A stretch of 38,182 bases of DNA from Pseudanabaenaceae cyanobacterium. GTDB lineage: Bacteria; Cyanobacteriota; Cyanobacteriia; Pseudanabaenales; Pseudanabaenaceae. The notes beneath the pieces were generated by a model. The model was not told where the DNA came from and made no database searches. It was given only the letters and a program-made list of their open reading frames with translations. The stretch spans positions 1-38,182 of the forward strand of contig JBIKNH010000012.1 in the NCBI GenBank assembly GCA_044358815.1. The letters run 5' to 3'. Shown here piece by piece: positions 310 to 36,935 of this stretch; position 1 is the stretch's first letter; each line of letters begins with the position of its first letter. Both the position numbers and the translations under genes were made by a program.

Positions 310-428
310 TTGGTTTAAGATCGATCTAATCTATCCCCTGTGAATCTATGTCTAGTGCGCTTCCCCATAGTCTGAGTTCCGTTAGTGCTAATTCCGTTAG
401 TGCTAATACAGAGCCATTGTCAGACCGT

Positions 429-1337
429 ATGGCGGTTGCAATCTTGGGACAAGGGGCTTGGGGAGCCGTTTTAGGGCAGCTAGTGAGCGGTAATGGTCAT
501 AGTTTGCAAAAATGGTCCCGCCATACTGACACAGATTTACGGACGGTCACCGCTAACTCTAGAGTGCTGATCTCTGCGGTGTCGATGCAGGGTGTACCAA
601 TGGTTGCTAAGCAGTTACAGAGTATTGGTTTGAATCCAGCAACGGTGATTGTTAGTGCCACGAAGGGTTTAGAGCCAACCACTGGCAGAACACCCTCGCA
701 AATTTGGCAGGACTGTTTCCCAGATAATCCTTTAGTGGTTTTGTCCGGACCAAATCTATCTAAAGAGATCGGGGCAGGCTTGCCAGCGGCGACGGTGGTG
801 GCGAGTCATGACGGTGCAGCCGCGAAATTAATCCAGAGTCTATTTGCCAGTAAAAATTTTCGTGTCTACACCAATAAAGATCCCATCGGTGTGGAGTTAG
901 GCGGCACGCTCAAAAATGTGATTGCCATTGCGGTGGGGGTCTGTGATGGTTTGAACTTAGGCACTAATGCTAAAGCGGCATTGATTACTCGGTCTGTTAC
1001 AGAGATTATTCGGGTGGGGATGTATTTCGGGGCACAGCCGGAAACTTTTTGGGGCTTATCAGGTTTGGGGGATTTACTCGCCACCTGTAGCAGTCCCCTA
1101 AGCCGTAATTATCAAGTAGGTTATGCTATGGCTCAAGGTAAATCTGTGGACGAAGCCCTAGCAGATATTGTTGGTACAGCAGAAGGGGTTAACACAGCCC
1201 AAGTTTTAAATAATTTAGCGGGACGCTATAGCATCAGTGTCCCAGTGTCTCGCTATGTGTATCGGCTACTACAGGGAGAGATCACGCCCCAAGAAGCGGT
1301 GGAGGGTTTGATGGAGCGGGATCTCAAAAGTGAGTAG
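429..1337 (+). CDS. gpsA: NAD(P)H-dependent glycerol-3-phosphate dehydrogenase
   Basis: N-terminal Rossmann motif MAVAILGQGAWG; the conserved GpsA core SGPNLSKEI and GVELGGTLKNVIAIAVGVCDGLNLGTNAKAALITR. The ORF is open from 348 (the extra 27 aa include a Ser/Val/Ala/Asn low-complexity duplication); the ATG at 429 aligns with canonical GpsA N-termini. Confidence 0.85.
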   Translation: MAVAILGQGAWGAVLGQLVSGNGHSLQKWSRHTDTDLRTVTANSRVLISAVSMQGVPMVAKQLQSIGLNPATVIVSATKGLEPTTGRTPSQIWQDCFPDNPLVVLSGPNLSKEIGAGLPAATVVASHDGAAAKLIQSLFASKNFRVYTNKDPIGVELGGTLKNVIAIAVGVCDGLNLGTNAKAALITRSVTEIIRVGMYFGAQPETFWGLSGLGDLLATCSSPLSRNYQVGYAMAQGKSVDEALADIVGTAEGVNTAQVLNNLAGRYSISVPVSRYVYRLLQGEITPQEAVEGLMERDLKSE

Positions 1338-1367
1338 AGGTGTGGGGGTGATCAGAGCCTAGAAAGC

Positions 1368-2231
1368 CTAGATCACATCGGCGAAGGTGCGTTCAGTTTT
1401 GCGGAAGTAATTTAAACCAGTCACAAACAATAAACCGACCACCATTAACGACAACGGAAAACCCACAGGATGTAAATTTACTTCGGTGTTCAGGATTGCC
1501 CAGCGGAAGCCGTCAATCACCCCTACCATTGGATTCAAGGAATAGAGCCAGCGCCATTGCTCCGGTACGATGCTACTACTAAAACCCACAGGGGAAATAT
1601 ACAAACCAAACTGCACAATAAACCCAATCACATAGGTAAAGTCCCGATATTTCACCGTTAGTGCCGACAGCCACAAACCACCACCCAGGGAGGCAATACA
1701 GGCAATTAGGGTAAATACAGGCAGAGCCAAAACTCGCCAAGTGGGGACATAGGCATACCAAGCCATTAGCCCCAATAAGATCATGATTGAAATCAAGAAA
1801 TCTACGAAACTGACGACAACGGCGCTAGTGGGTACGATCAAACGCGGAAAATAAACCTTAGAAATTAATCCGGCATTTCCCACTAGACTACCGCTAGCAG
1901 TGGTTAGGGAATTAGCGAACAGTTGCCAAGGCAGCATCCCCGCAAATACCAAAATGGGATAGGGCACACCGTCAGAGGGTAATTTCGCCAATCCACCAAA
2001 GATCACGGTAAATACCACCATCGTCAAGAAAGGACGTAATAACGCCCAAGCCATACCGATGGCGGTTTGTTTATACCGCACCAAAATATCCCGCCATGCC
2101 AGAAAGTAGAACAGTTCCCGATAGCGCCAGAGATCTTGCCAATACTGTCGCTCGGTTCTGCCAGCTTCAATGATGGTTTCTTGGATCGGTGGGGTATGGG
2201 TCTCCTGAGGGGAGGGATCACTTACAGTCAT
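1368..2231 (-). CDS. ABC-2 type (Wzm/KpsM/TagG-like) polysaccharide/O-antigen export permease
   Basis: Six predicted TM helices with typical ABC-2 permease sequence (WRDILVRYKQTAIGMAWALLRPFLTMVVFTVIFG ... ISKVYFPRLIVP). The ORF is open from 2366, but the ATG at 2231 (MTVSDPS...) fits family N-termini. No ATPase partner is adjacent. Confidence 0.75.
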   Translation of the reverse strand: MTVSDPSPQETHTPPIQETIIEAGRTERQYWQDLWRYRELFYFLAWRDILVRYKQTAIGMAWALLRPFLTMVVFTVIFGGLAKLPSDGVPYPILVFAGMLPWQLFANSLTTASGSLVGNAGLISKVYFPRLIVPTSAVVVSFVDFLISIMILLGLMAWYAYVPTWRVLALPVFTLIACIASLGGGLWLSALTVKYRDFTYVIGFIVQFGLYISPVGFSSSIVPEQWRWLYSLNPMVGVIDGFRWAILNTEVNLHPVGFPLSLMVVGLLFVTGLNYFRKTERTFADVI

Positions 2232-2626
2232 GGTGCGTTGCGGCTCCGATAGCTTGAGAATTTGATCATATTTGGGATGATTTAGGTTTGATTGTAAAGG
2301 GATTCCGATAACAACGGATAGAGCCAAACTATTGAATTGCCATTTGCCCGATTTGGTTAGCCCCAATTGTTTAGTCCCATTTGTTTAAGTGGCTTCATGC
2401 AACTGAATTTATGCAACTGATTTGTTTAACTCGATTGAGTTGGATCTGGGTTTCATCTGCAAAGTTGCATGAACAAATTGCATACACAACTTACATAAAC
2501 GGGTTCCATGTAGTCGCATCAAGGTGTCAAAGAATAATTTGGCAATAACTGCCTCACAATAACTGACTAAGAATCCGCTAAAATTACCTTGATCAACATA
2601 CAAGTTACATACAAGAGATTAATTGT

Positions 2627-3079
2627 GTGGCACATACCTTTTTGATGCAGCCCGGCAAATGGACTCTTGAGGGGAATTGGTTAGAACGTGATGCGCGACC
2701 AATTGCCATTAAAGGGCGCACCCTTGTGGCATGGTCAAAAGATAACTTTTGGTTCACAATGGTGTCTAAAATTGGCTTTAGCAGCGATAATCGCGATGAA
2801 CTAACCCTTGCTTACAAAGGCAGAATTGACCCCGATGAGCGCCACTTTACCTTTGTTTTAGACCATAGTGAACTAGGTAGGGTCGAAGGTGAAGGCTTAA
2901 TTTCCCCTGATGCCATTGTGCAGCGCTATTGGGTGCTGGGGGACAAAAGAATGCGCACTGGATTTCAGACTTTTTATCGCGCTGATGAAAACCACTATCA
3001 CTTGTCTGGCGGTCTCACTGCTGGACAGAATCTGGAAAATATGATCGATGCAGTCCTGATTCGTCATCCGGACTCCTAA
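2627..3079 (+). CDS. hypothetical protein (about 145-150 aa, soluble)
   Basis: Clean ORF with coding-like composition, divergent from the permease gene. Start is GTG at 2627 or ATG at 2645 (MQPGKW...). No motif recognised. Confidence 0.5.
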   Translation: MAHTFLMQPGKWTLEGNWLERDARPIAIKGRTLVAWSKDNFWFTMVSKIGFSSDNRDELTLAYKGRIDPDERHFTFVLDHSELGRVEGEGLISPDAIVQRYWVLGDKRMRTGFQTFYRADENHYHLSGGLTAGQNLENMIDAVLIRHPDS

Positions 3080-3340
3080 GGTTAACCTAGGTTGTGGTGT
3101 TCTGGAGCCAGCCCCACAGCCTCATATCCCACAAATAAACACAAATAAATATCTATTTTCAGTCATATCTGTTGCAGTTCGTATCAAAATCAACTGTCCA
3201 TGATCCCCCCCGTTGGCTAAGATCTGCGGCGGTTTGTTAAAGATCCGCCATTGAGGAGCACTTAAACCGTCACTGGATTTCTATTTCATCAATTCCCATT
3301 CCATCCACCAGATTGCAAGACTACAAGGACATTTAGACCC

Positions 3341-4213
3341 ATGATTACTGATCTTGATCGCGTGCAAATCCTTAGTGAAGCCCTACCGTACATGCAACAG
3401 TTTGCTGGACGTACCGTAGTGGTGAAGTATGGCGGTGCAGCCATGAAGGAAGAGCATCTCCGTCAAGATGTGATTCGCGATATTGTTACGATGTCGTTTA
3501 TGGGTTTGCGTCCAGTGGTGGTCCACGGTGGCGGTCCAGAAATCAACTCTTGGCTCGCTAAATTGAACATTGAGCCGCAGTTCATCAATGGTTTGCGGGT
3601 CACTGACGCTGCCACGATGGAAGTGGTGGAAATGGTCCTAGTAGGGCGGGTCAATAAACAAATTGTGGAAATGATCAACCTCGCTGGCGGTTCGGCGGTG
3701 GGGCTATGCGGTAAAGACGGTAACCTAGTCCGCGCTCGTTCCCAAGGTAATGATGCCATTGGTTTTGTGGGGGAAGTCAGCAGTATTAACATTAAATTGC
3801 TGACCACTTTACTCAATGCGGGGCATATTCCGGTGGTGTCCAGTGTGGCAACGGATGAGACGGGACAGGCTTACAATATCAACGCTGACACAGTGGCGGG
3901 GGAATTAGCTGCTGCCCTCGGTGCTGAAAAAATGATTTTACTCACTGACATTGCAGGAATTTTGCGGGACTACAAAGACGTTTCGACGCTGATCCGCAGT
4001 TTGACGATCTCCCAAGCCAGAGAATTAATCGAACAGGGCATTGTCAGCGGGGGGATGATTCCTAAAGTGCAGTGCTGTGTGCGATCCTTGGCTCAGGGGG
4101 TCAAAGCTGCCCATATTATTGATGGGCGGGTTTCCCATTCATTGCTGTTAGAAATTTTCACTAATGCTGGGGTGGGATCGATGATTGTTGGCTCTGAGTC
4201 AGCATTGCTTTAA
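3341..4213 (+). CDS. argB: acetylglutamate kinase
   Basis: Amino-acid kinase family hallmarks: VVKYGGAAM near the N-terminus, [11 protein letters not shown], and a C-terminal GGMIPKV-type motif. The length (290 aa) is typical. Confidence 0.9.
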
Positions 4214-4291
4214 CTGACTGTTGGATCATGGTTGAATGATGGCGGCTGGTGGCGGCAATGGTTCCAAATATCAACCTAGGTAACTACACTG

Positions 4292-5017
4292 ATGGCTAAT
4301 GATCAACTAGCCCCCACTGATGCGCCCCAGTCCACCGTTGCTGAGGATGTGACCCTGAAGGATACCGGATCTGCCAGTGACGCGGCTGGTGTGGCTCCTG
4401 AAGTCCCTGAACCAAACCCTAAGCCAAATAATTCTGAGTCTGATAAACCTAAGGAGTCGGACAAGGGGGCAGAATCTGGAAGTAAACACCCTGCTAAGGA
4501 AATTCGTGGGTTGAGCCTAGGCTTATCACGATTAGTCCCATCATTTGAGCTACCCAAATTACCAAAGTTACCCAATTTACCCAAGTTAAAACTTAAACTG
4601 CCCTCATGGCGTGCCAGCCTCGTGCCGCTTTTGCTGCTGTTTATGGCGGTGGGCTATGTGGTGGTGAGTCGGCAATTTATTCTCCTGATTTACAAAAAAC
4701 GTACTTTAGCCATGAGTGGGATCACTATTTCCTTGGTCCTGCCCCTGGCTAATGCCTGCGCTGAATATAGCTTGATGCGTTGGGGCTATCTGATCAGCGG
4801 TGTGTTGATCATTGGGGGTTTGATTGTGATTACCAAAAGCCCCACCGACTGGATTTTGATCGCTTTGGTGACTTGGTTTGGGCTATTGGGTATGGTCATC
4901 AGTGGCGAAATTCTCACCAGTCAAAAGATCAAAATTTGGTTGGTGGTGATGTTACAAACTTTGATTGCCCTGGCTGCTACGGGGTTAGGGTGGTTTCTGG
5001 TGTGGCTGATGAGTTGA
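4292..5017 (+). CDS. hypothetical membrane protein with an acidic/Pro-rich N-terminal region and an imperfect P-K-L-P repeat tract
   Basis: ORF of 241 aa. The N-terminal ~110 aa are low complexity (PEVPEPNPKPNNSESDKPKESDK; PKLPKLPNLPKLKLKLP), followed by 4-5 hydrophobic helices. Its 3' end overlaps the convergent rbgA by about 40 nt. Confidence 0.5.
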   Translation: MANDQLAPTDAPQSTVAEDVTLKDTGSASDAAGVAPEVPEPNPKPNNSESDKPKESDKGAESGSKHPAKEIRGLSLGLSRLVPSFELPKLPKLPNLPKLKLKLPSWRASLVPLLLLFMAVGYVVVSRQFILLIYKKRTLAMSGITISLVLPLANACAEYSLMRWGYLISGVLIIGGLIVITKSPTDWILIALVTWFGLLGMVISGEILTSQKIKIWLVVMLQTLIALAATGLGWFLVWLMS

Positions 5018-5879: not shown

Positions 5880-6372
5880 AGGAAAAGAGCCTTAGTTGAA
5901 GAGCCGTAGTTTTTGGTGAAGAGGCAGGGGGATAGCGAGGCTGAGATTAACCCGAATTATCGTCAATACCAGCAAAGTTAGTATATACTCTTATTGTGTT
6001 ATTAAGAAATATTAAGAAAACCAATTTATCATCGATTGCTGTCAATGGCTAAAGATTCCTGAAAAATTGAATTCAGTAATCAGAGAAAGTAACTTCTCTA
6101 AAGCCTTGATCTTCCTACCTAAATAAACTTTAGTCCTGTATTTTATTCATCAACTTTTAGCTTATTTCTAACAAACTTTGACAAACCTCAGTAAACCTTC
6201 CCGAATATCTAATACTGCATCTCATTCGTCTGCTTAATTGACAAATTGCGAACTAATCAAACTATTAACTACACCAATGATTAAGCTCATAATTAATTAG
6301 CGATATTAGGTAGTACTCCATCAGGTAAAACTGTTTAAATTAATTCTCAAATAATTCTCAAAAATTTGTAAA

Positions 6373-7263
6373 ATGACTATAAAAAATTCCATGCACCAAA
6401 ACAATTTTCAAAATCTCTTAGATTGGCTGAATCGGCAGATATTGCTCTCTTGGCAGCGTTTCCATGAGCAATGTACCAGGCTGATCATAGCCGTTGTTTT
6501 GGTTGCCTTAATTGGTTTGAGTCCTAGTTTGACCGCTCCTGCCTATGCCTACGATGCTCCTGAACTGCTACCCCCAGAATATTCCAATGTGATTGATTTG
6601 GGGCGTTTTTTGGCAGATGGTCAAGAGGCAGAATTAGACAAGCAATTGCAAGAGTTTGAAACTCGTACTGGTTGGAAATTACGGGTTCTAACCCAAGTGG
6701 ATCGCACCCCTGGACGAGCAGTAAAAGATTTTTGGGGTCTCAATGATCGCAGCATTATGTTAGTGGCAGATTCTCGCGGTAGGAATCTCCTAAATTTTAG
6801 TGTGGGTGATGAGGTTTATAACTTGTTGCCGCGCACTTTTTGGATTGAATTACAGTCTCGTTATGGCAATCAGTTTTATGTGCGAGATCAGGGACATGAT
6901 CAATCAATTTTAGCGGCTATCGATGCCATTGAAACTTGTTTAGAACAGGATGGTTGTCGAGTGGTGCCAGGGCTACCCCAAGAGCAATGGATTTTAACTT
7001 TGCTGACTTCATTGGTGGGCGGGTTTGTGTTTGGTTTTGCGGGACATCCTCGTAAAGAAGGGGAGATTTTTGCTTGGAAATGGGCTTTGGTATTTACACC
7101 GCTGTGGGGCATGTTGTTTATTTCCTTTGGTATTGGTCCGGTGATTAGTCGGACTGCGGAATGGTTGCCCATCGTGCGCAATGTTGCCGGATTTATTGGC
7201 GGTGCAGTGATTGCCTATCTGATTCCTTCCCCTAGTCGTCCCGAAACTTCTAAAGAATCTTAA
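6373..7263 (+). CDS. TPM-domain protein (TLP18.3/Psb32-like, photosystem II repair-associated family)
   Basis: N-terminal TM/signal region, then a TPM-domain-like segment (GRFLADGQEAELDKQLQEFETRTGWKLRVLTQ ... IMLVADSRGRNLLNF) and a C-terminal TM segment. This architecture is typical of cyanobacterial Psb32 homologues. Confidence 0.6.
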   Translation: MTIKNSMHQNNFQNLLDWLNRQILLSWQRFHEQCTRLIIAVVLVALIGLSPSLTAPAYAYDAPELLPPEYSNVIDLGRFLADGQEAELDKQLQEFETRTGWKLRVLTQVDRTPGRAVKDFWGLNDRSIMLVADSRGRNLLNFSVGDEVYNLLPRTFWIELQSRYGNQFYVRDQGHDQSILAAIDAIETCLEQDGCRVVPGLPQEQWILTLLTSLVGGFVFGFAGHPRKEGEIFAWKWALVFTPLWGMLFISFGIGPVISRTAEWLPIVRNVAGFIGGAVIAYLIPSPSRPETSKES

Positions 7264-7686
7264 ATTGAATTAAATTGAATTTGTGCTGTGGGTGCTGCGG
7301 TTTATCAAGCAGTCTCAGAAATAGAACCATAAAATTAGATATTGTATATATTGGTTCAAGACAGGTAAGGGAAGTAATTCTCTTGCCTATTTTTTTATAT
7401 TGATTGGGATTGATTAGGACTAATTTGGAATTGATTTTAATAGAAGTCTTACGGAAGATTTTAGAGACTGATCTCTAGACTTTCGACTGTTCTCACTTCG
7501 TAGTGATTTGCCATAGGTTTTGTTGCGAATTGCATAAAGGCATAAATCAGAAGGTGGTGCTAAATAGGACAGGGTGCTGAGTTCTTCCCGTAGCACTGTC
7601 TAGCCTTACTTCATCCTTTCCATCTTAGGACTACCCATTTTAGGACTACCAAATCGTGAACCTAATGAAGCTGAATTAGCGATATT

Positions 7687-8274
7687 TTAAGAATCGCGTG
7701 GTTTATCTGGGATGTTTATGCCATAGAGAAACATATGCAGAATTTCCAGAGGTGACATGGGTGGGCTATGGATCATAATATCGTCATTGCTGGGATGAAG
7801 ATGAAAGCGTATATCTCGCTGATCGTTGTTATGATCTGGCAGATTGAGATCGATTCTTAGAAAAGGAACTTTAGTTTCTCCTTCTCTTTGCGGGAACCTT
7901 ATTTCAAAGTCAAATCCTATAATTTGAGCAGGTTTACAAGTTTCATCTATAGTAATCGCAAAATCAAACCAGCAGCCATTATTTAGTTTGAAATGTGGGA
8001 CATGAAACTCTCGCTTTTGGTTTTTATCTCCACCCATAATTTCAGAATAGCCTTTTTGGGGAATTACAGATGATGGGCGTAACTTTAGCAGCTTGTTAAT
8101 TTGATCTAACCTATTAAGTACAATTCTTTCATCACTAGCCAATGTTAGACATTTCAGGATTTCTGCTCGTAAAATCTTGGCATTTTTTACGTTCAGTGAC
8201 GTATTGCTTAATGACCGCTCTTGAACATCAGCGCAAATTTTTTGCCAACTATTTTTGTCGCTCAAGCAAGTCAC
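7687..8274 (-). CDS. hypothetical protein (195 aa), third gene of the AT-rich operon
   Basis: Overlaps the preceding gene by 26 nt. Contains His/Asp-rich segments (FHVPHF, RIDLNLPDHNNDQRDIRFHLHPSNDD) that could coordinate metal. No recognised family. Low GC. Confidence 0.5.
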   Translation of the reverse strand: MTCLSDKNSWQKICADVQERSLSNTSLNVKNAKILRAEILKCLTLASDERIVLNRLDQINKLLKLRPSSVIPQKGYSEIMGGDKNQKREFHVPHFKLNNGCWFDFAITIDETCKPAQIIGFDFEIRFPQREGETKVPFLRIDLNLPDHNNDQRDIRFHLHPSNDDIMIHSPPMSPLEILHMFLYGINIPDKPRDS

Positions 8275-8845
8275 CTCGATTAAGTAAAATTAGCCATTCC
8301 CCATATTCTGGATCGGTTGGTAGTTGACGATTCTCAGCTAAAGCAATTACTTCGTCATTAGTTTTACCTGTCCATTCTTGTAGTGCAGCTAGGCGGCGAT
8401 CGCATTCTTCATCACTCAGTATTTCAGCATCTTTTTGTAAATAATATATTCTTGCACCCAACCAACTCAGAAAATTAGGAGCATTATGTATCATTAAATC
8501 ATTAGCTTGCTCAGAAATGACAAGTAATCCTCCTTTATTACCTTTATCTAATCGACTTCTCAAAGCATCAAATATTTTCCATTGGTTACTATCCCAATCA
8601 TCTAATTTCCATAGTAAAAAATATTCTTCTGATGCTTTACTAATTTGATTAATTAAATCTCTTGCTCCAGATTCACCAGAGATAGTAACTGTGATACATT
8701 CACTAAAAATTTCAATAGTATCTTGTAAGTCTGTAACTATCGATTCTATGTCACTAATATCAACAACAAGAACCATCCAGATATTTGCGTCTGGACGCGC
8801 TCTAATTCTTTGCAATAATTCATCTACAGAAAATAACTTAATCAT
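8249..8845 (-). CDS. hypothetical protein (198 aa), second gene of the AT-rich operon; possible small alpha/beta domain with acidic clusters (VVDISDIES, KLDDWD)
   Basis: Its start overlaps the upstream NTPase gene by 8 nt (ATG within 8838-8845), suggesting translational coupling. There are no TM segments and no recognised family. Low GC. Confidence 0.55.
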   Translation of the reverse strand: MIKLFSVDELLQRIRARPDANIWMVLVVDISDIESIVTDLQDTIEIFSECITVTISGESGARDLINQISKASEEYFLLWKLDDWDSNQWKIFDALRSRLDKGNKGGLLVISEQANDLMIHNAPNFLSWLGARIYYLQKDAEILSDEECDRRLAALQEWTGKTNDEVIALAENRQLPTDPEYGEWLILLNRGDLLERQK

Positions 8846-10043
8846 CTAAAACTCCAGTTACAATTTTATTCTCAATAACTGCAGCTATTGCAGGGTGAAC
8901 TATAAAACGTGGTTTAGGATAACGATATTCCAAGATGTGACCTGTGTGTAATAACTCCCAGTGCTCAGAATTGCTAGGAAAAAAAGAACTTCGGGCGAAT
9001 ATGCGAAGAATAGTCATCTCTGAAGCATTTAAGCCCATAAGTTTTAAACGAACAAAGGGTAAAATTGCTTGTTCAACATGCTGAGCTGTAATTCTATCAG
9101 CTCCATCTAAGTAAGCCTCCTCAATCGACATTTGAGAAATAGATATAAAATCTCGTAAAACCCCTCCTGAACATGATATTAACAGTGACCGTGCATCTGA
9201 AGTGAAAATGTTATCGGGATCTCTCACGCCCATAATATCAATAAAAAACTGTTTAGCTTCAACACTATCAAATACATCAAGATATGGTAGATATACTAAA
9301 AGCCCTTTAATGTTTTCTCTTAGCATTTGGGTTATTGCTACAGAACCCACGATAATTGAGCCAATTCCAGCAATTTCCCTAACCATTCTTGCATCATTTA
9401 AAGCGGATTCAAAAAATAGTTGTGGATCAGCTATTCTATCTAGTCCGTCAAAGAGGAAAACAATTTCTTTTGCAATTTTCTGTTTGACAGCTTCTTTCAA
9501 AGTAGATAAATCTTGCACAAGAGATTCTATGATTTTTTGTTTTTTGTTATTTAGCGATAGTATTCCTTGATAATCAAGAGAAATCTGCTCTTCCCACGGC
9601 TCTAAACTTTGCTCAGGCACATACACTACTGTTTCGCTATATCCATGAGCCACTTTTTCGATTCGTTTTTTACATTTTTCTAGTATGGTATTCTTCATAT
9701 CACCCAAGATATTTATTAACTCAAGTCCCGCAATAGCAATTAAAGCACCTGCCTGAAGATTAGAGATGTCAGTAAAAAGACTGACATCAACATAGATAGC
9801 TTGTATATCTTCCAGTTCATTTAACGCACTTTGAGTTAGCAAAAGTTGGGTGGTTTTACCTGCTCCAATACCACCCAAAAGAATCTTTATTGACGAAGGA
9901 TTTACCTCAATTCTTCTGGTAATCTCTCTAATAGGACTGTTTGGCAATTTAACATAAAATCCTCGCTCGACAGCACGCTGAGGATTGGAAGTACCTTCAA
10001 AAGCTGACATCAGCTTACGGAAAAACTTTAGGCGCTCAGACAT
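8838..10043 (-). CDS. P-loop NTPase, STAND/NACHT-like (Walker A GGIGAGKTT; Walker B VFLFDGLDR); first gene of a 3-gene AT-rich operon
   Basis: ORF of 401 aa. The GxGxGKTT P-loop follows FYVKLP...REITRRI, and the hhhhDGhD Walker B resembles the NACHT signature. The C-terminal ~120 aa look helical/winged-helix-like (MTILRIFARS). There are no repeat-type sensor domains. GC is markedly lower than the flanks. Confidence 0.7.
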   Translation of the reverse strand: MSERLKFFRKLMSAFEGTSNPQRAVERGFYVKLPNSPIREITRRIEVNPSSIKILLGGIGAGKTTQLLLTQSALNELEDIQAIYVDVSLFTDISNLQAGALIAIAGLELINILGDMKNTILEKCKKRIEKVAHGYSETVVYVPEQSLEPWEEQISLDYQGILSLNNKKQKIIESLVQDLSTLKEAVKQKIAKEIVFLFDGLDRIADPQLFFESALNDARMVREIAGIGSIIVGSVAITQMLRENIKGLLVYLPYLDVFDSVEAKQFFIDIMGVRDPDNIFTSDARSLLISCSGGVLRDFISISQMSIEEAYLDGADRITAQHVEQAILPFVRLKLMGLNASEMTILRIFARSSFFPSNSEHWELLHTGHILEYRYPKPRFIVHPAIAAVIENKIVTGVLDD

Positions 10044-12519: not shown

Positions 12520-12810
12520 AGGGTGTTTGGGAAGTCTGCATATTCGCTAAAAACAATAATTGATCCCCCCTAGCCCCTCTTCCAAAAGATGAGAGGATAA
12601 CAAGAGATTAGCTTTATTCCCCCTTCCCCTTAATGGGAGAGTGGGGTTGGGGGATGAGGATGATATTTGTTCCACATAACATCATAATTAAGGTGATTCC
12701 TGCTATAACAGGTTGGCATAGGCACAAATTCTGTGGAGCTAGTCAGTTTTATCCTGGCTACTTTCATAAAGTGTTTAGAATTGCTATGATTAGTTACTGG
12801 TCGTAATTTA

Positions 12811-12906
12811 ATTACCAGATTAATTACCAGATTAATTACCAGATTAATTACCAGATTAATTACCAGATTAATTACCAGATTAATTACCAGATTAATTACC
12901 AGATTT
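12811..12906. repeat. perfect tandem array of a 12-bp unit ATTACCAGATTA, about 8 copies
   Basis: Read directly from the sequence: attaccagatta repeated head-to-tail from 12811. The last unit ends ...gattt, 16 nt before the ATG at 12923. Confidence 0.9.
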
Positions 12907-16681: not shown

Positions 16682-16701
16682 GTCTGATTGTGAGACTATA
16701 G

Positions 16702-16806
16702 ATAATTCAAATAGAAGATACAGCTTCAACTTCGTTCGGCTAGCTTACACCAACGGCTGAGCGAAGTTGCAGCCAACTCTACAAATTACTTCAAACAACT
16801 ATACAT
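16702..16806. repeat. copy A of a ~105-bp dispersed direct repeat (about 85% identical to 17031-17133)
   Basis: ataattcaaatagaagatacagcttcaacttcgttcggctagcttacaccaacggctgagcgaagttgcagccaactctacaaatta... aligns collinearly with the second copy. Confidence 0.8.
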
Positions 16807-17030
16807 GAAGATTTCTAGTCTTCAGTGGCATCAAAACATATTTTAGGTTAAAGTATAGGTTGGATTTTTTAGGTAAGACGAGGTGGGAAAGTACCGCAAA
16901 GATGCGTAGGAGTAATACTCAGAAATATTTAGCTAACACTAATTTTAAATTAGTAGTTAAAATTAATAGTTAAAGTTAATAATTGAAAGCGGTGGAATTA
17001 TCTAGGCTTAGAATCATCCTGAGGTCATGA

Positions 17031-17133
17031 ATAATTCAAATAAAAATATAGCTTCAACTTCCCTCAGCTAGCCTACACCAACGGCTGAGCCAAGTCAAAG
17101 CCAACTCTATAAATCATTTTAAACAACCATAAC
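17031..17133. repeat. copy B of the ~105-bp direct repeat
   Basis: ataattcaaataaaaatatagcttcaacttccctcagctagcctacaccaacggctgagccaagtcaaagccaactctataaatca...; lies about 250 bp upstream of the hybrid kinase start. Confidence 0.8.
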
Positions 17134-17378: not shown

Positions 17379-20300
17379 ATGTTTAATCCTATTGCTGCAC
17401 TAACTGACTTAGACGTAAAACTAGCAATTATTCGGCATCCTTTGATGCTGCCCCCAGAAACCTTGGTTACTGATGCAATTGCGGCGATGAATCGTCATCG
17501 GGTGACTGGAATCTCAAATACTGGGACAGATCATTCTAGTTCTAGTCAACTGAAGCAACTCCATAACTCTCAACAGGATCTACAGGATCTACACCTTGAA
17601 ACCCACTTTAGCTGTGTCTTAGTGACCGAAGCATCTCGTTTAGTTGGGATTTTCAGTAGACGGGATATGGTGCGTTTAATTGCCCAGCAATATGCTCTGG
17701 AAAGATTACGTTTAGCAGATGTGATGATCCGTAAGGTCATCTCTCTACCGGAAATAGAATTTACGAATGTATTCGTAGCTACGGGATTATTACAGAAATA
17801 TCGGATTCGTAATTTACCCACCGTTGATGCTGACGGCAGAATTACGGGAATTATTACCCATGAGAGCCTCTGCCAAATTGCGCGACCTGTGGATTTGTTG
17901 CGGGTGCGTCAAGTGCAGGAGGTCATGACCAGTCCCGTAGTGTGGACCCGACCTGAGGCGACTATTTTAGAAGTTACCCGATTGATGCATCAACATCGCG
18001 TGAGTTCGGTGGTGATTGCACAGCCTGATTTAAGAACTGATTTAAGAACTGATTCAGGGACTGACTTAGAGAATAATCTAGAGACTGATTCTACAACTAC
18101 TGATCAGATAACTGACCAGATAACCAACCAGGTAAATAATAAACCAAATCATAGTTGTTCTTCTATTAAACCCATAGGAATTATTACGGAAAGAGATTTA
18201 GTCCAGTTTCATGCCCTTGGTTTAGCGGTGGAGGAGTATAACGCCGCCCAGATCATGAGTAGTCCAGTTTTTACGATCTTACCGGAAGAACATCTCTGGA
18301 ATGCCCAGCAGATTATGACACAACGGATGATCCGATCTGTAATTGTGGTGGATCAACAGCATAATCTCCAGGGTATTATTACCCATACCAGTTTATTGCG
18401 AGTATTAGATCCTACGGAACTTTATAAATTAGCCGAGGTTCTAGAAACCAGAGTTAATCAATTGGAATCGGAAAAAGTTAGAATTCTGGCACAGCGTACC
18501 GAAGATCTAGAACGAGAAGTTCAAGAACGGACCCATAAACTAGAGCTTACCCTAAAACGAGAAAAAATCATTAATCGGGTAGCCCAAAGGATTCGTAATT
18601 CCCTAGATCTCCATGAAATTTTAAATGCCTGCGTTATGGAAGTGCAGCGCTTTTTAGACTGTGATCGGGTGATTGTTTATCAGTGCGGGTGTGATCGTAG
18701 TGGTGTAGTGATTGCAGAGTCCGGCAACCCAAATTTTGACAGTCTTTTGGGAATTGATATTCCAGATAATTACTGTGAGAAGGAAACCATAGAGTTAATG
18801 AATGACGATGGAGCAGAGGCTGCCAATGGGCAAGTCATCGTGGATGATATTGATTCTGGCGCTTATCCACAGGAACAAATTGCATTCTTTAATCGGTATC
18901 AAGTTAAAGCCGGTCTGATGACACCGATCCGGCTAGATGGCAAGCTATGGGGGTTATTAGCAGCGCAGCAATGCCAATCTAGCCGTCAATGGTATTCCGA
19001 TGAAGCCGAGTTATTAAGTGCTTTGGCGGTGCAGTTGTCGATTGGGATTCGGCAATCCATCGCTTATACTGAAATGGAACAACAAGTCACCGAATCAAGA
19101 CTATGGCGCAAGCGCTACGAAGCCGCCGCCAGTAGCAGTGGGCAACTGATTTATGAATATGATCATCGTACAGGAAAAATCATTTGGGGAGCGGGTGTTC
19201 AGGAGACTTTAGGTTATAAACCGGAAGATGCTCCGTCGGATTTCCCATCTTATTGGCGTATCGTTCACCCTGACGATTTACCTCAGGTAGAAGCACTAGT
19301 GGAAGTATGTATTGACCTTAAAACTGTTTTTCATTACCAATATCGAGTATTACATCAGAGGGGAGAATATATTTGGGTTGAAGAACGGGGACAATGGCTG
19401 ACTGATCCCAATGGAGAAGCATATATCGTGGTGGGGATGGTGTCTGATATTACCCAACGGAAGTTAGTGGAGCAATCCCTGAAAACACAACGAGATTTTA
19501 GCCAGCTTATTGCGCAGATTACCAGCCGATTTGTGCATATCACATTGGCAGAACTAGACTCAGAAATCAATCGCAGTTTGCTGCTAATTGGTGGTGCAAT
19601 GGAGGCTGATACAAGCTTCCTTTACCGTTTAGATGATGCTAAAAGTACTCAGACCATGACCCACGAATGGACTAGAGATGGCTACTCTAGCAGGATGCAG
19701 CTAAATCAGCACCTACCCCTAGGAATCTGTCCTTGGTTCCAAAATTTAATTGCGGAACGCAAAACTTGCTATATACCGGACATAGACCATGCTCCCAACG
19801 ATGCAGCAGTAACAGTGGCACAGTGGCGCAGACTAGAACTAAAATCGATTCTGTTAGTTCCTTTATTACAACAAAATCAGGTGATTGGCTATATTGGCTG
19901 CGGTTCTTTGAGTACGCCGACATATTGGGAAGAGGAAGTGATTAACTTAGTCACGGTAATGGGACAGTCCATTGTGAATGCCCAAGAAAGACTGATTAAC
20001 CGTCAAGAACTAGAAACCCTCAATCATTCCCTAGAAGCAGAAATAGCCAGAAGAATTGATGAATTTCAACAGATTTATAGTCTACAGCAAGCCATTCTCA
20101 ATAGTTTTGATTATGCGATTATTTCAACGGATATCAACGGCATCATTCGGACATTCAATGCTGGCGCTGAAAACTTTTTAGGTTATAGCGCTAGTGAAGT
20201 GATTGGCAAAATGACTCCTGTAGTGTTTTACGATCCTCAAGAAGTCCAAGATCATGCCAACTACCTATCGGCAAAACTAGGGCGGTCTGTGAGTCCTGAT

Positions 20301-24786: not shown

Positions 24787-24838
24787 CGGTGGGGTGAAGC
24801 GGTACTCGTAAAAAGTACTTTTTACAAGTTGGTTACAC

Positions 24839-24932
24839 GAGCCATTTACACGAGCCATTTACACGAGCTATTTACACAAGTTATTTGTAAGGGTTATTTG
24901 TGAGAGTTATTTCTAAGAGGCATTTGCATAGT
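24839..24932. repeat. decaying tandem array of a 13-bp unit (CCATTTACACGAG x2, then CTATTTACACAAG, TTATTTGTAAGGG, TTATTTGTGAGAG, TTATTTCTAAGAG, GCATTTGCATAG)
   Basis: Read directly. The two 5' copies are perfect and the following copies diverge progressively. It lies between the receiver-kinase stop and folP. Confidence 0.8.
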
Positions 24933-27375: not shown

Positions 27376-27538
27376 AACATCTCTATTTATCTTGATCAGG
27401 TCCATCAGGTCCTCGATTTCTGTGGGAAGTCGGGGACTTTTGGTGAGTAAAATTTAGTTATGGTAGTTATGGATTTGGTTGTTCAAAATAGGTTGATTTA
27501 ACTCGCTAATTCCCGTCAATCACACCTGAGGTGCAAAC

Positions 27539-28645: not shown

Positions 28646-28708
28646 AGACATCTCAAATGCAGGGGAGGCAATGAGTCGAGGCAGTGCAAAACACTAATCT
28701 AGAAATGA

Positions 28709-29119
28709 CTAATCTAGAGCCGCAGTGCATTCAATTTCCACCAAAGCATCAAGGGGCAACCGCGCTACTTGAATTGTAGAACGGGCAGGGGCAGGATCGA
28801 GAAAATACTTGCTGTAAACCCCATTCATGGTAGGGAAATCAGCCATATTTGCTAAAAATACCGTAGTTTTAACCACATGGCTCAAATCAGCCCCAGCCGC
28901 TGCTAAAACCGCTTTAATATTTTGGATCACTTGTTCGGTTTGGGCTTCAACGGTATTAGCTTCAATTTTGCCAGAGGTGGGGTTGATTGCCACTTGACCC
29001 GCCAAGAAAATTAATTTACTCATGGCAGGCACAGCAATGGCTTGATTATACGGACCCACTGGGGTAGGGGCATCGGCGGCACGGATTACTTCTTTGTTAG
29101 ACATTTTGTTAGACACCAT
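28709..29119 (-). CDS. ridA: RidA family reactive enamine/imine deaminase (YjgF/TdcF)
   Basis: APTPVGPYNQAIAV, KTTVFL, and the C-terminal PARSTIQVARLPLDALVEIECTAAL pattern. Two in-frame ATGs (29119 and 29104) are created by a 12-bp tandem duplication (MVSNKMSNK). Confidence 0.85.
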   Translation of the reverse strand: MVSNKMSNKEVIRAADAPTPVGPYNQAIAVPAMSKLIFLAGQVAINPTSGKIEANTVEAQTEQVIQNIKAVLAAAGADLSHVVKTTVFLANMADFPTMNGVYSKYFLDPAPARSTIQVARLPLDALVEIECTAALD

Positions 29120-29395
29120 CAGGGCGAATAATATAACTGGATTAGTGACCGGATTGATGAGCCAGATTGATTGATTTGGTTAGGAGATAATTGGCGAAAT
29201 CCCAGACAACAGTTTAGAGGTTGAGTTAAATTTATTACAACACCATTTATTACAACGGCATTTATCACAGCACCTGATCAACTTAAGCTCCAACCACCCA
29301 AATCTTGACGGTTTCGGCTCAAGCTGCCAATGCAAAGGTTAAACTCAGTAGCCGAAAAGTGATTAAGCAATGAGAGAAATCGCAAAAATGATTTA

Positions 29396-30829
29396 TTGGA
29401 ACTAATCATGGGTATTTTAAACCGCATTTTTCGTGCCCCATCAGCAACTACGCCCCCAAATACGCCCCCAAATACGCCGCCTAGTCAGACGACAATCAAT
29501 GTGCCATCACAAACTGTAGAGCGAACCCCCACTCCATCCGTTGGGTCATATAGAGACACACCGGAACCCATTTCCCCCAAACAACCTAGTACTGAAGGTG
29601 GTCTGGTTGCCCCATCAGCGGCACAATCTGCTATCAGTAATCGCGGCTTGAAAACTAACTACATCGATCAAGCTGTGAGTCAGGCACAGGGGGCGGGACG
29701 TTATCTCTGGAAATGCTGTGTGTGGGGTTTCTTTTTGGTGGGTGTACCCGTGGGGATCGTTGCAGTGGCTAATTTACCCGTCCCTGTATGGCGGCAAACC
29801 GTTGCTCAGTATGCTCCTTTTTTACTAATTCCTACCTATGTCTCATTTGAAAATCGCTTCAAAAGTGCTTATGCTGCCCTCGAAAAAGCTCGGCAGTTAA
29901 TCGAAACTCCCACCAGTCCGACGGATTTTGATTTAGGCGAACAAAACCTCAGCCAAGCTAAACAAGATCTTGATGCCATTCCCATGACATTTAGCCGAGA
30001 TTGGGAGCAATATGGTTATAGTTATCACTGGTGGTATGGCTCATATTTTTCACCCTATGCACTACAAAATGCCCGTGTGCGGGTAGGTAATTTAGAAGCA
30101 AGGTTATCTCAAGAGCGGATGGCTCAAAAGCTCTTACAGGAATCAGAAACCGCTATCAGTCAGGCTAAAAACCAATATCAACAGGCAACAATTCCGGCTC
30201 AAAAGCAAGCGGCACAGATAACTTGGCGTAGTACCATTGCTCAGATGACCCAAATTCCACCTCAAACCTTAGCGGGTCGCACTGCTGCGCAAAAACAAAC
30301 CATAGCCAACCAGGAATTTACCCAAATAGTGGGAGTTCAGGGAAATCGGAATACGGCGGCTATGTTCACAGCGGGAGCCGAGGAATTTGCCAAACGCGCC
30401 AGTGCTGCTGTCACAAAGCCTCCCCATCCCGTGGCACGGTGGGCACAGGCAGAACAGCTATGGATCGAGGCAGTTCGACAACTGGAATCCATTGATCCGA
30501 AAACTCTACATGACAGTCCCGAGACTTACATAGAACTTCAAAAACTAATAGCAACTTACAGGGGTAATTTAGCTGAAGTGCGGCGACGTTTGCAGGAAGA
30601 AAGAACTTCAGTGGAAAAGTTTAATCAGGCTCAACAGGAGTTAAACCAACTGCAAGTGGAACTATCCCCAGATTTACCACTGACCATTGACCGTCGTCAG
30701 GCAGTGGCGCGATTATTAACAATTCGCAGCTATTTGGATCAAGTTTCCAGCGGAACCACCGTCAGTAATAAGTCGGCTCAGATTAAAGCTACTGTGAATG
30801 AAAGGCTCAAGCAATTAAAAGTTTTCTAG
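29396..30829 (+). CDS. hypothetical membrane-anchored protein with a Pro/Thr-rich N-terminus and a long Gln-rich coiled-coil-like C-terminal region
   Basis: 477-aa ORF. TTPPNTPPNTPPSQTT repeat; one TM segment (WKCCVWGFFLVGVPVGIVAVANL). The remainder is Q/A/E-rich and helical-looking. Confidence 0.5.
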   Translation: MELIMGILNRIFRAPSATTPPNTPPNTPPSQTTINVPSQTVERTPTPSVGSYRDTPEPISPKQPSTEGGLVAPSAAQSAISNRGLKTNYIDQAVSQAQGAGRYLWKCCVWGFFLVGVPVGIVAVANLPVPVWRQTVAQYAPFLLIPTYVSFENRFKSAYAALEKARQLIETPTSPTDFDLGEQNLSQAKQDLDAIPMTFSRDWEQYGYSYHWWYGSYFSPYALQNARVRVGNLEARLSQERMAQKLLQESETAISQAKNQYQQATIPAQKQAAQITWRSTIAQMTQIPPQTLAGRTAAQKQTIANQEFTQIVGVQGNRNTAAMFTAGAEEFAKRASAAVTKPPHPVARWAQAEQLWIEAVRQLESIDPKTLHDSPETYIELQKLIATYRGNLAEVRRRLQEERTSVEKFNQAQQELNQLQVELSPDLPLTIDRRQAVARLLTIRSYLDQVSSGTTVSNKSAQIKATVNERLKQLKVF

Positions 30830-31115
30830 AGACTATTCTAGAGAGAGTATTTTTGGGAAAATTCTGCTTAAATTCTCCGGTCAAGTTTCTCTTGGTGAAA
30901 TCCACCACCAGGTTACAAGTAATTTACAGGTAATTCACAAGCAAGTTATCAAACCATCTAAGTTTAGCGAAACCGACTATTGCGCGATAAGAGCCACTAC
31001 TCCCAAGGTCAGATTGATCCGTCCTATTCCCCCAACAGGATCACGATTGATCGCGGCTTTTTGCTACGATTAAGCCAGCATCAATCTATTCACTCAAATC
31101 TAGTTTTCAGCCACC

Positions 31116-31439: not shown

Positions 31440-31865
31440 CATCATCATAGAGGTTACGATCAATCAGCCTTTTCTTGGTTAGTTGAGCAGTAACATCGGA
31501 GATAGTATCAAGGCGATGCACGGACCAATAGTCAATCTAAAGTTAGCCTGATGAGATTAGTCTGGTTGGTCCATCGACCTGGTTGCCAAAACTGATTGCT
31601 AAAAGTGGTTACCAAAAGTGGTTGCAAATCTAGTCAAGGAAACCAAATAAAACTATCTGTTCTGATGCGTTACCTTTATGCATCATTGGCTCCCTCACAT
31701 GAACCCCATTGACCAGACTAAATTGATAAGTTTGGGGGACGTGGCTTCAATCAAGGGACTATCGAAACCGCCGACCAGAAAAAAGATTTCCGTCTGTAGG
31801 ATTACATCATAGGCTAGTCAACCTTTGCGCCCCTAGTTGTTGTTTTATGACTTTTGTATAACTTT

Positions 31866-31889: not shown

Positions 31890-31944
31890 AATAACTAACC
31901 TTAAAAAGGAACAAGATTCGATACATTATAACGCAGTATAACTC

Positions 31945-33420: not shown

Positions 33421-33516
33421 ACAGGCTATCAAGTGCGGTAAGTACAATACTTGAAACTAAGAGCGCAACTAGTTTCGATAACCCGCTTTTCAGAACCTAC
33501 TTTTCAGAACTGACGG

Positions 33517-33990: not shown

Positions 33991-34789
33991 GGAAATAGAT
34001 TAATAAAATTACATTGACTTACCGTAAAATTTTGTAAAATTTTTGTATATGTCTAGAATTGGGCTGAGAAGCATGACAAGGGGATCACAGTCCTATGGAA
34101 AATGGTCTTTAGCAGGTCTTTAATAGGTTTTCAACGAGGTCTTTAATGGTGATTATTTAATGGCAATTTATTCTATATTGACCAGATAATAGACCGTAAT
34201 CTAAACCATAATCTGGCATTAACTAGGCATTATTCAGGTCAATTATGAGTCAGCGCCGTTTCTTAAATAATTTCTTAACTAAAATTTCTTAACTAAAGGT
34301 TAACTAGTTGATTACCTTAGCAGTGTGACCAAAGCGAGACAGCAAAGCAGATTACAAATTAATAATTATGGTTGTGCTATGGTTGCCGATGCCTTGATGA
34401 AGCTGAGACATAGAGAATTAAGAGCCAACCAATAACCCACAATAACCCAGCAACAAAATAACGCAGTAACAATAAGGGCATAACCTGTTAATTGATCATT
34501 ACAATACGCGGGGTTAATCGATAGATCTATTACAGTAGGTCTATTACAGTGAAACTATCCCTGTAGCCTGTGCCGAAGCTTTCTGTAACTTTTCGTCATG
34601 TTTCGCAATTGATTGACATAATCCGGAATCTAAGTTAGCCAACAATTGCCCATTAACTCTTACCCATAAGCTGTTTAGAATCTACTGTCCGATTTGGCGA
34701 ATATTAAGCCGATCATCATCAAATTGCGATATTTTATAACCCTATTTTTGAACTTTTAACACTTTTCAGAATTTCCCAATTTACTGAGG

Positions 34790-36874
34790 ATGAAGATCAT
34801 GGTTTTTTCTTTTGCACCCCTGCGCCGCGCTCTATGGGGAATTGGTCTGACTATGGCTGTGGTTGGGACTTCTGGGGTGAGCATATCTCAGGAATCTATA
34901 GCAAAAACTGTAGTTAATCCTGCCAAAAAAACAACTAATTCAATAGTTTCTCCTGGTACAGTTTCGCCTAATTCACCCATCCCTAAAGCCGAAGTTTCTA
35001 CGCCAGAGCGCACTATTCAGCTTCAACAATCGGGAGAAATCCCCTTTTTACTATGGCTTTTTGGCGGCACAATTTTGATGTTTGTGTTTTTGCCTCAGTT
35101 AGGCTGGATTATGGGTCTCATTGTAGTCAATGAGAGAGAAGTTGGCATTGTAATTAAGAAGTTCTCATTTAAACAAGGTTTAGCTGCTGGTCATCTGATC
35201 GCCCTCAATGGAGAAGCAGGTTATCAAGCGGATGTTTTGGCTCCTGGGTGGCATTTTGGCTATTTCCCTTGGCAGTATAATGTGAAACGGGAACCAGTAA
35301 TTATCGTGCCCCAAGGGGAAATTGGTCTGGTGGTAGCTAATGATGGGCGTTCTATTCCAGCGGAACGCATTCTTGGCAAAACAGTTCCTTGTGATAACTT
35401 TCAAGATGCTCGTAAGTTTCTGCTCAATGGTGGCGAAAAAGGGCGACAGTTGGGCATTTTGACCGCTGGGACTTATCGAGTCAATAGTGCTCTATTTTCC
35501 GTGATCACTTCGACTAATGCCACTCAATTCGGTATGAAGCCTAGTGAATTACGAATTTATAAAGTTGATCCCGAAAAAGTTGGAATTGTGACCACCCTAG
35601 ATGGGGTTCCTATTTCTGAAGGAGAAATTGCCGGACCGATTATTCCTGATCATGACAACTTCCAAAATGCCCAATCTTTCATCAGTCAAGGGGGACGCAG
35701 AGGCTTACAGGAGCAAGTAGTTCTATCCGGCTCATGGAACTTAAATCCTTGGTTTGCCCAAGTGGAACAAGTACCTATGTCTACAGTTCCCATTGGTTAT
35801 GTAGGGGTAGTGATTTCCTTTGTGGGGGCATCTAACACCGATGTAAGCGGAGAATCTTTCACTCACGGTCACCTAGTAAGTGTGGGTAATAAGGGAGTTT
35901 GGGTTGAGCCGCTATATCCAGGGAAACATCCTCTCAATACTCACATTATGAAAGTGGAACTAGTACCAACCACTAATATAGTTTTGAACTTTTCTGACCG
36001 CACGGAAGAACATGGTTATGATGCGAAGTTGCGCTCTCTAAATGTTCGTTCCATTGATGGTTTTGCATTTCGGTTAGAAGTGGCGCAGATTATTCATGTG
36101 GGGGCATTGGACGCGCCGAAAGTGATTTCACGAGTCGGTTCAATGCAGAATTTAGTAGACCATGTGATGCGTCCTATTGTCGGCAACTATTTCCGGAACT
36201 CTGCCCAAGCCTATACGGTGTTAGATTTTCTGATTGCTCGCAGTGAGCGACAAGTAGAAGCAGCGGACTATATTCGCACTGCTTTACGCGCCTATGATGT
36301 GCAAGCGGTGGATACATTAATCGGGCAAATCGAACCACCAGAAGAGTTAATGCAAACTTTGATTGACCGCAAGATTGCCCAGGAACAGGAAAAGACCTAC
36401 GAGGTACAGCGTCTTGCCCAAACTCAGCGTCAGGAACTAGTTCGGGAAACATCTTTGGCTGACATTCAGCAACAGGTCGTTAAAGCAGAACAGGGTGTTA
36501 AAATTGCAGAATTAGAATCTAATGCCCGAATTAATGCTGCGAATGGTGAAGCGGAAGCCGTTCGTTTAATGGGACAGGCAAAAGCAGAAGCCTATCGTTC
36601 TGGGGTGCAAGCCTTAGGGCCACAGGCTTATACAGCATTACAGTTGATGCAAGTCATTGGCGATCATAATGTGCGGGTGGTTTCTGATGTGTCGGTCAGT
36701 GGCGGTGGTCACGGCAATGGTTTAATGGATGCGTTATTGGGCATGGTAATGGTGGAACAGAAACAACGAGGTTCCGTTACTGCCGCTTTGGGCGCGATGA
36801 CTCAGCCGCCTCGTCCCGAGGATCGTCCGCCATCTCCTCCTAGTGCTCCTAGTGCGAAGGCTCCAAAAGCCTAA
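34790..36874 (+). CDS. flotillin-like SPFH/band-7 family membrane protein
   Basis: N-terminal signal/TM segments, an SPFH-like block beginning NEREVGIVIKKF, then a long Ala/Glu/Gln-rich coiled-coil 'flotillin' region (QEQEKTYEVQRLAQTQRQELVRE ... AEAVRLMGQAKAEAYRSG) and a Pro-rich tail. Confidence 0.7.
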   Translation: MKIMVFSFAPLRRALWGIGLTMAVVGTSGVSISQESIAKTVVNPAKKTTNSIVSPGTVSPNSPIPKAEVSTPERTIQLQQSGEIPFLLWLFGGTILMFVFLPQLGWIMGLIVVNEREVGIVIKKFSFKQGLAAGHLIALNGEAGYQADVLAPGWHFGYFPWQYNVKREPVIIVPQGEIGLVVANDGRSIPAERILGKTVPCDNFQDARKFLLNGGEKGRQLGILTAGTYRVNSALFSVITSTNATQFGMKPSELRIYKVDPEKVGIVTTLDGVPISEGEIAGPIIPDHDNFQNAQSFISQGGRRGLQEQVVLSGSWNLNPWFAQVEQVPMSTVPIGYVGVVISFVGASNTDVSGESFTHGHLVSVGNKGVWVEPLYPGKHPLNTHIMKVELVPTTNIVLNFSDRTEEHGYDAKLRSLNVRSIDGFAFRLEVAQIIHVGALDAPKVISRVGSMQNLVDHVMRPIVGNYFRNSAQAYTVLDFLIARSERQVEAADYIRTALRAYDVQAVDTLIGQIEPPEELMQTLIDRKIAQEQEKTYEVQRLAQTQRQELVRETSLADIQQQVVKAEQGVKIAELESNARINAANGEAEAVRLMGQAKAEAYRSGVQALGPQAYTALQLMQVIGDHNVRVVSDVSVSGGGHGNGLMDALLGMVMVEQKQRGSVTAALGAMTQPPRPEDRPPSPPSAPSAKAPKA

Positions 36875-36935
36875 ATATAGAACAAATTAAAATAGAACAA
36901 ATTAAATTAGAAATAACGAAAGAGAATTTACCGGT

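Follow-up and report, generated by a model that had tools for sequence, protein, structure and literature searches.

Short tandem duplications that vary among strains and respect the reading frame in a Pseudanabaena-related cyanobacterium

Abundance of head-to-tail duplications

The window analysed here is the whole 38,182-nucleotide stretch of contig JBIKNH010000012.1 (assembly GCA_044358815.1), from a Pseudanabaenaceae cyanobacterium, and it is rich in short segments copied head to tail. An exact scan recovered 17 such duplications (at least two copies, units of 9–15 bp), whereas 200 dinucleotide-preserving shuffles averaged 0.175 and never exceeded 2; Tandem Repeats Finder (TRF) returned 52 rows. 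We consider it likely that these repeats are the work of an ordinary but unusually productive mutational process, duplication followed by slippage and then by selection, in this Pseudanabaena-related organism. The excess over chance, the polymorphism among strains, the expansion, the independent events in sister species and the filter on reading frame are all direct observations. A first-pass annotation of the same DNA had described duplications of this kind throughout the window, and had left open whether their density exceeds what base composition would give; the pattern is real and the density does exceed it.

The split into coding and non-coding DNA was taken from gene calls on identical public contigs, by which 16.6% of the window is non-coding. 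This non-coding sixth carries 12 of the 17 exact duplications, where structured shuffles, in which codons were kept in genes and composition was kept in spacers, predict 0.03 (and about 0.33 for coding DNA); TRF loci with a period of at least 9 cover 16% of the non-coding DNA against 1.1% of the coding DNA. The commonest non-coding unit is 10 bp, and no exact duplication with a 7–8-bp unit was found in the non-coding DNA of the window. Periods of 4–8 are at or near the level of the shuffles, a small excess at period 6 excepted, and the one-mismatch cases of 9–10 bp in genes (at 3618, 14939, 20121 and 27696) lie within expectation. The duplicated units are unique local sequences with neither dispersed copies nor a common motif, and a dispersed-repeat scan of the window gave no family resembling miniature inverted-repeat transposable elements that could explain the pattern. 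Near-identical contigs were recovered in independent ENA, JGI, NCBI and Logan assemblies and, because the same alleles recur among them, the duplications are not assembly artefacts.

Variation among close strains

Aligning about 34 kb across up to ten strains that are 96–99.6% identical to the window, we observed nine polymorphic loci: 5885 (14 bp), 7260 (10 bp), 12808, 27395 (9 bp), 29230 (a 15-bp array), 29455 (12 bp, in frame), 31522 (17 bp), 33506 (15 bp) and 34430 (10 bp). Between-strain indels of at least 9 bp are all of the tandem-duplication type, the sole exception being a 10-bp gap, which comes from a contig covered only 2.4x, and indel sizes are bimodal, falling at 1–5 and 9–19 bp with none in between. 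The duplication process is currently active between strains. Indeed, these nine loci, together with the filter on reading frame described below, uphold the suggestion of the first-pass annotation that an active duplication process is being filtered by selection.

The array at 12808..12905 consists of 8.2 perfect copies of the 12-bp unit TTAATTACCAGA and ends 17 nt before the ATG of a PAS-GGDEF-EAL gene. Strains L195 (JGI) and L196 (GCA_046307535.1) have two copies against eight in the window, with identical flanks, and in them the region 5' of this gene is 72 nt shorter. The array at 29230..29274 (15 bp, three copies) is longer by 17 nt in L087, by 34 nt in L089 and by 15 nt in L092. Reversion and expansion, as expected of microhomology-mediated tandem duplication, are both represented (two to eight copies at 12808, copy-number variation at 29230, probable losses at 31522 and 5885). 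A single-copy allele is seen for the microhomology-mediated, in-frame PPNTPPNT duplication (29445..29478, + strand; 12-bp unit, 2.8 copies): at 29455, L092 carries the single-copy state TACGCC-CCCAAA-TACGCC with 6-bp arms, and this is a textbook microhomology-mediated duplication.

Alleles with one copy also occur beside the ylqF start (5885..5911; a 14-bp duplication matching at 12/14, one copy in L002/L195, L196 and L202), across the stop codon of gene 6391-7263 (7260..7281; 10 bp, exact, single in L002/L195) and in the spacer at 27395..27412 (9 bp, exact, single in L092); at 5885 a copy loss is probable. The 17-bp unit at 31522..31538 is single in the window and tandemly duplicated in seven other strains, where the copies agree at 17/17 positions in six and at 15/17 in L096, a distribution suggesting that the window lineage probably lost one copy. 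Some repeats are nested: at 34430..34472 a recent exact 10-bp duplication, found only in the window's near-identical strains and absent from L087, L089, L090 and L091, lies within an older 16-bp duplication (87%), and at 34259..34297 an exact 14-bp duplication (34269-34297) lies within an older imperfect repeat. The array between the RR-HK gene and folP (24824..24919; 13 bp, about seven copies), whose identity decays from 5' to 3', showed no copy-number difference among the strains compared. With one-, two- and eight-copy alleles in near-identical strains, and nested duplications of differing age within one spacer, the window is a natural snapshot of tandem-repeat birth, and its variable loci would be good strain markers.

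Reading frame and protein segments

The exact coding units measure 9, 9, 12, 12 and 15 bp, so that five out of five are multiples of three, compared with 4/12 of the non-coding ones (Fisher P=0.02); among TRF loci the proportions are 11/12 in coding and 7/29 in non-coding DNA. The contrast that had been drawn between multiple-of-three units inside genes and free lengths outside therefore stands. We stress that this frame rule is general across cyanobacteria and not peculiar to this genome: in a background of 42 other cyanobacterial loci, multiples of three account for 29/33 duplications within open reading frames (ORFs) and 12/33 outside them (P=1.5e-5).

The coding duplications are located in lineage-specific, low-complexity protein segments. 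When the N-terminus of the 2078-aa hybrid histidine kinase is aligned with seven homologues, the DLRT.../DQIT... repeats form an insert of about 38 aa between CBS domains that is absent in 7/7; the insert is encoded by two adjoining in-frame 12-bp arrays (18025..18135, + strand), DLRTDLRT at 18025-18073 and DQITDQIT at 18099-18135, the latter matching at 11/12. In the same alignment the QDLQDL repeat (17573..17593, + strand; 9 bp, exact, 2.3 copies, 3-bp microhomology) adjoins a 14-aa lineage-specific insert. In gpsA an exact 15-bp duplication in the N-terminal extension (377..407, + strand) yields SVSAN twice in frame. GpsA of the metagenome-assembled genome Pseudanabaena sp. ELA607, 88% identical to that of the window, carries LSANS once at the position of the SVSANSVSAN of the window (324 versus 329 aa), and in GpsA of a second sister species an 18-bp duplication (PNSANS-TNSANS) has arisen independently at that position. 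Three species share the conserved MSSAL start and no internal Met occurs in the sisters, and these comparisons argue that the extension is truly coding. The kinase inserts and the GpsA repeat differ from their homologues and sisters, in keeping with lineage-specific origin, and the kinase insert also agrees with the earlier proposal that such repeats generate low-complexity linkers in a sensor protein. Protein linkers and N-terminal extensions have here been built through repeated in-frame duplication.

Further in-frame cases are the LPK tract (4551..4588, + strand; 9/18 bp) of the hypothetical protein 4292-5017 and the exact 9-bp PSAPSA repeat (36837..36855, + strand), which lies in the SPFH/Band-7 C-terminal tail. 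A 12-bp duplication matching at 11/12 gives MVSNKMSNK at the start of ridA (29092..29115, - strand); gene callers pick either Met, giving 131 or 136 aa, and the suggestion that the duplication is a source of an alternative start is plausible only.

Sister species and other cyanobacteria

Five exact duplications (14, 11, 13, 11 and 16 bp) were found in the syntenic sister species L204, whose genes are about 80% identical to those of the window; all are non-coding, and none shares a site with a duplication of the window. In Pseudanabaena biceps PCC 7429 units of 10 and 12 bp occur several times, one of them as a 12-bp array of 5.5 copies, and two further Pseudanabaena-like loci contain few or no such duplications. 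Overall, exact duplications reach 0.445 per kb in the window, compared with 0.065 (1.56 Mb) and 0.029 (0.70 Mb) in unrelated loci. Normalising with a crude ORF mask over the 42 other cyanobacterial loci (865 kb), we obtained non-ORF densities of 2.01 per kb for the window and 0.278 per kb for the background (Poisson P=2e-7), an approximately 7-fold difference, and ORF densities of 0.155 and 0.044 per kb (P=0.015). The kind of pattern is general, but its amount is exceptional.

One duplication is shared across species. The divergent ylqF/TPM spacer, otherwise unalignable with L204, contains a block of about 50 nt (5975-6020) that is nearly identical in both species and holds two exact copies of the 10-bp direct repeat TATTAAGAAA (6000..6019). 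Because it has been kept in L204 within this conserved block, the TATTAAGAAA duplication is old and probably functional, and the block is a candidate operator or promoter element. Conservation of this sort, as expected of a regulatory direct repeat, was found at 6000 only; other spacers are unalignable, or the repeat is absent from the sister.

Origin of the duplications

We propose that DNA replication or repair would yield head-to-tail copies of segments of 9–17 bp, the founding step being a replication-associated misalignment (lagging-strand flap or slippage) that a few bases of microhomology may sometimes aid. Once two copies are present, slipped-strand mispairing could add copies, as from 2 to 8 at 12808, or remove one. 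In spacers any unit length would survive and decay slowly, while in genes only in-frame events would survive, in tolerant disordered segments such as N- and C-terminal tails and inter-domain linkers. Misalignment is most likely as the founding step, and the later slipped-strand expansion and contraction are directly visible. The sevenfold excess over other cyanobacteria may then mean that duplications form faster, or are removed less, in the clade. A 2026 preprint argues that duplications of this kind occur in every domain of life, give rise to tandem repeats and revert readily, and that they rise when Okazaki-fragment flap processing (Rad27) is lost; it reports that 50–60% of the perfect duplications in reference genomes are without arms (bioRxiv 10.64898/2026.02.28.708716).

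Several observations weigh against this account. Microhomology arms, which in microhomology-mediated duplication typically span at least 3–4 bp, measure 6 bp at 29455, where the single-copy allele is seen, and 3 bp at 17573, but 0 bp in 8/13 two-copy events, and the mean of 0.62 nt compares with 0.74 by chance; as 8/13 events are without microhomology, most of them give no evident sign of simple 3'-end re-annealing. The gap of 7–8-bp non-coding units and of 5–8-bp strain indels is not predicted by plain slippage, on what are small numbers. The cross-species conservation of the duplication at 6000 means that not every item is a neutral by-product, and the comparison of densities sets one 38-kb window against loci chosen for other reasons. 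Low microhomology might be read as a sign of a non-slippage mechanism; we rejected this reading because 95 background duplications, scored by the same measure, have the same profile as the window (none in 45–60%, at least 3 bp in 23–27%). Since the profile matches both the background loci and the reference genomes of the preprint, we take replication-associated misalignment to be the likeliest founding step. Among units with unambiguous boundaries, 4/8 end in AAA on the + strand (at 3130, 6000, 6341 and 36877; post-hoc P=8e-5); the numbers are small and the feature is not repeated in the P. biceps units, and we have set it aside as a curiosity. The + strand is G-rich along the whole window.

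Matches arising by chance in an AT-rich, biased composition would account for periods 4–8, the small excess at period 6 apart, and for the few one-mismatch cases in genes; for units of at least 9 bp this origin is refuted by 17 exact events where 0.175 are expected, no shuffle exceeding 2 and the non-coding expectation being 0.03, and we give it practically no credence. Membership of the short tandemly repeated repetitive (STRR) families, a link that the first-pass annotation had raised, would suit repeats that are tandem, mainly intergenic and cyanobacterial. STRRs were reportedly described as heptamer arrays by Mazel and colleagues in 1990, however, and the window has only two 2-copy heptamers, the chance level (2 vs 2.1), although the same scan finds many heptamer arrays in Anabaena and Microcoleus loci; every window unit is, moreover, a unique local sequence. 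With neither heptamer arrays nor recurring unit families present, we found no link to STRRs, and membership is refuted for this window to the point of being scarcely conceivable. That the direct repeats are selected functional sites, either response-regulator operator half-sites about one helical turn apart or iteron-like elements, gains from the TATTAAGAAA pair, conserved in a species that is about 20% divergent, from the 10-bp length of the commonest non-coding unit and from the position of the arrays at 12808 and 24824 just upstream of genes. As a general explanation it is nevertheless improbable: identity spans every base of the unit, coding DNA included, many loci are found in some near-identical strains and missing from others, the sister species carries different duplications elsewhere, and the units have no common motif.

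A further possibility is that the copies are target-site duplications left by transposon insertion and excision, or more generally result from staggered nicks 9–17 bp apart, followed by fill-in and re-joining. IS4/IS1-type insertion sequences leave target duplications of sizes resembling 9–17 bp with a mode of 10, the 5–8-bp class is absent, and most events are without microhomology, all of which would agree. Against this, no insertion-sequence polymorphism was found in the roughly 34 kb aligned across up to ten strains and no transposase gene is encoded in the window; we found neither the fixed length nor, in some genomes, the intervening element that target-site footprints would have, and the range of 9–17 bp is too broad for a single element. 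The microhomology profile equals that of unrelated genomes, and the arrays and copy-number changes require slippage anyway. We therefore regard such an origin as decidedly improbable. A tentative and, in our estimate, unlikely reading is that a natural tandem-duplication mutator is represented by the Pseudanabaena clade formed by the window species, the L204 species and perhaps P. biceps. A heritable peculiarity of flap processing, or a staggered-nick fill-in activity, would then make arm-free duplications of 9–17 bp (about one helical turn) at several times the usual rate, and some arrays, such as the 12-bp one with two or eight copies 17 nt upstream of the GGDEF-EAL gene, would act as copy-number switches of signalling genes.

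Relation to known systems

The whole picture fits the published model in which a tandem duplication matures into a tandem repeat (Haber and Louis model; Wei et al. 2026, bioRxiv 10.64898/2026.02.28.708716), and there is no new element or system. As in that model, a single copy becomes two and then reverts or expands, and the loci are polymorphic within a species; 29455, with its 6-bp arms and single-copy allele, and 12808, with 2 versus 8 copies, are examples. Microhomology arms are absent from 50% of perfect duplications, in agreement with reference genomes at large. The window differs in a density about 7 times that of other cyanobacterial loci per non-coding kb and in that most of its events are arm-free, strictly non-microhomology duplications. 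The organisms of that study include no cyanobacterium (bioRxiv 10.64898/2026.02.28.708716).

The repeats share with STRR heptamers a concentration in the spacers of filamentous cyanobacteria and enough variability for strain fingerprinting, whereas their units are of 9–17 bp, unique and mostly in two copies rather than 7-bp families in long arrays. STRR units belong to families (STRR1-3), the sequence of each being found again at many loci. Two of the loci that we collected, L024 and L025 (Microcoleus and Anabaena azotica), have many classic heptamer arrays (TTTTGAC, CAACTGT, ATTTTAG and others), unlike the 9–17-bp units of the Pseudanabaena type. Short tandem-duplication indels are said to have been described by Messer and Arndt in 2007, with a similar literature reported on non-coding chloroplast DNA. 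Like those plastid and human indels, in which short insertions mostly copy the adjacent sequence, the duplications of the window gather in non-coding DNA, but their size spectrum begins at 9 bp instead of being dominated by 1–6 bp. Bacterial contingency loci are phase-variable simple-sequence repeats, in which altered repeat number changes the reading frame or promoter spacing of a specific gene, and the promoter-proximal array at 12808, which varies in copy number between strains, resembles them as a variable 12-bp array (two or eight copies) 17 nt upstream of a c-di-GMP signalling gene; the exact in-gene repeats, being multiples of three, differ from them in affording no on/off switching of translation.

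If the sevenfold excess holds genome-wide, the clade would be a convenient system in which to study the rate and size spectrum of bacterial tandem duplications. This clade-level excess and the copy-number-variable array directly upstream of the c-di-GMP signalling gene might be the points worth pursuing.

Other repeat loci

The coding items reported by the first-pass annotation are present (gpsA, the kinase repeats at 17573, 18025 and 18099, 29445, the LPK tract at 4551 and the ridA start), as are the intergenic ones at 7260, 34269 and 36877 and the arrays at 12808 and 24824-24919. Four intergenic entries were correct as to the presence of a repeat and needed redrawing. The duplication placed at 7641 with the unit ttaggactacc is a 15-bp unit at 7620..7650 (14/15); that at 2398-2425 consists of 10-nt copies separated by 4 nt, so that its period is 14 bp (12/14); the array given as a 12-bp unit at 31586-31630 has a 13-bp unit (31579..31625, 3.6 copies, 79%, by TRF); and the duplication at 34516-34541 has a 14-bp unit (34522..34550, 13/14). 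The exact scan added duplications at 3130, 6000, 6341, 27395, 27455, 34024, 34430 and 36837. Those not described above are intergenic 10-bp copies at 3130..3149, without microhomology, and at 34024..34043, an 11-bp duplication upstream of the TPM-domain gene (6341..6366) and a 9-bp intergenic one at 27455..27472.

Just 3' of the Band-7 stop codon lies a 15-bp unit in 2.7 copies (36872..36912). Imperfect arrays seen by TRF are found upstream of the ABC-2 permease gene (2353..2387; 14 bp, 2.5 copies, 85%) and, in intergenic DNA, at 2460..2500 (13 bp, 3.1 copies, 78%), 16947..16981 (13 bp, 2.7 copies, 90%), 30913..30941 (11 bp, 2.6 copies, 83%) and 34104..34146 (11 bp, 3.8 copies, 75%).

Gene content and further features of the window

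The window encodes ordinary cyanobacterial chromosomal genes: gpsA, the ABC-2 permease, argB, ylqF, purL and the PAS-GGDEF-EAL gene, together with the hybrid histidine kinase, folP, ridA, secG, an HlyD-type gene, SPFH/Band-7 and protoporphyrinogen oxidase. Its closest named relatives are Pseudanabaena, the Band-7 protein being 74–78% identical to those of several Pseudanabaena species. A contig search with the 2078-aa kinase returned paralogues only (at most 58% identity in the best segment) and a metagenome contig search with folP returned distant orthologues only (at most 57%), neither yielding a sister genome; the loci from both searches were reused as the background set. Look-ups of purL and GGDEF gave no further strain, and those of P0032 and P0006 gave no match. 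An Rfam search of the window found no family, and PADLOC and Pfam gave no useful match for the hypothetical genes. The cyanobacterial HIP1 palindrome, GCGATCGC, occurs once in the 38 kb.

An island on the - strand (7687-10043) contains three hypothetical genes (401, 198 and 192 aa) at a GC of 0.36 versus 0.44; its sole family signal is a weak ATPase_2 match, with none from PADLOC. It is missing from the sister species L204, where arginine decarboxylase comes after the TPM gene, and strains with an overall identity of 96% diverge strongly in it (33/192 and 21/198 aa differences, with 8936-9691 unalignable). It resembles a variable accessory island. In the spacer separating the GGDEF-EAL and kinase genes, an element of about 115 nt occurs twice (16691-16805 and 17020-17133), the copies being 83% identical and 328 nt apart. 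Neither copy has an Rfam match, and on the + strand both fold into a long stem-loop (z = -5.3 and -4.5 versus shuffles); a small RNA, a terminator and a miniature mobile element are all possible identities for it.

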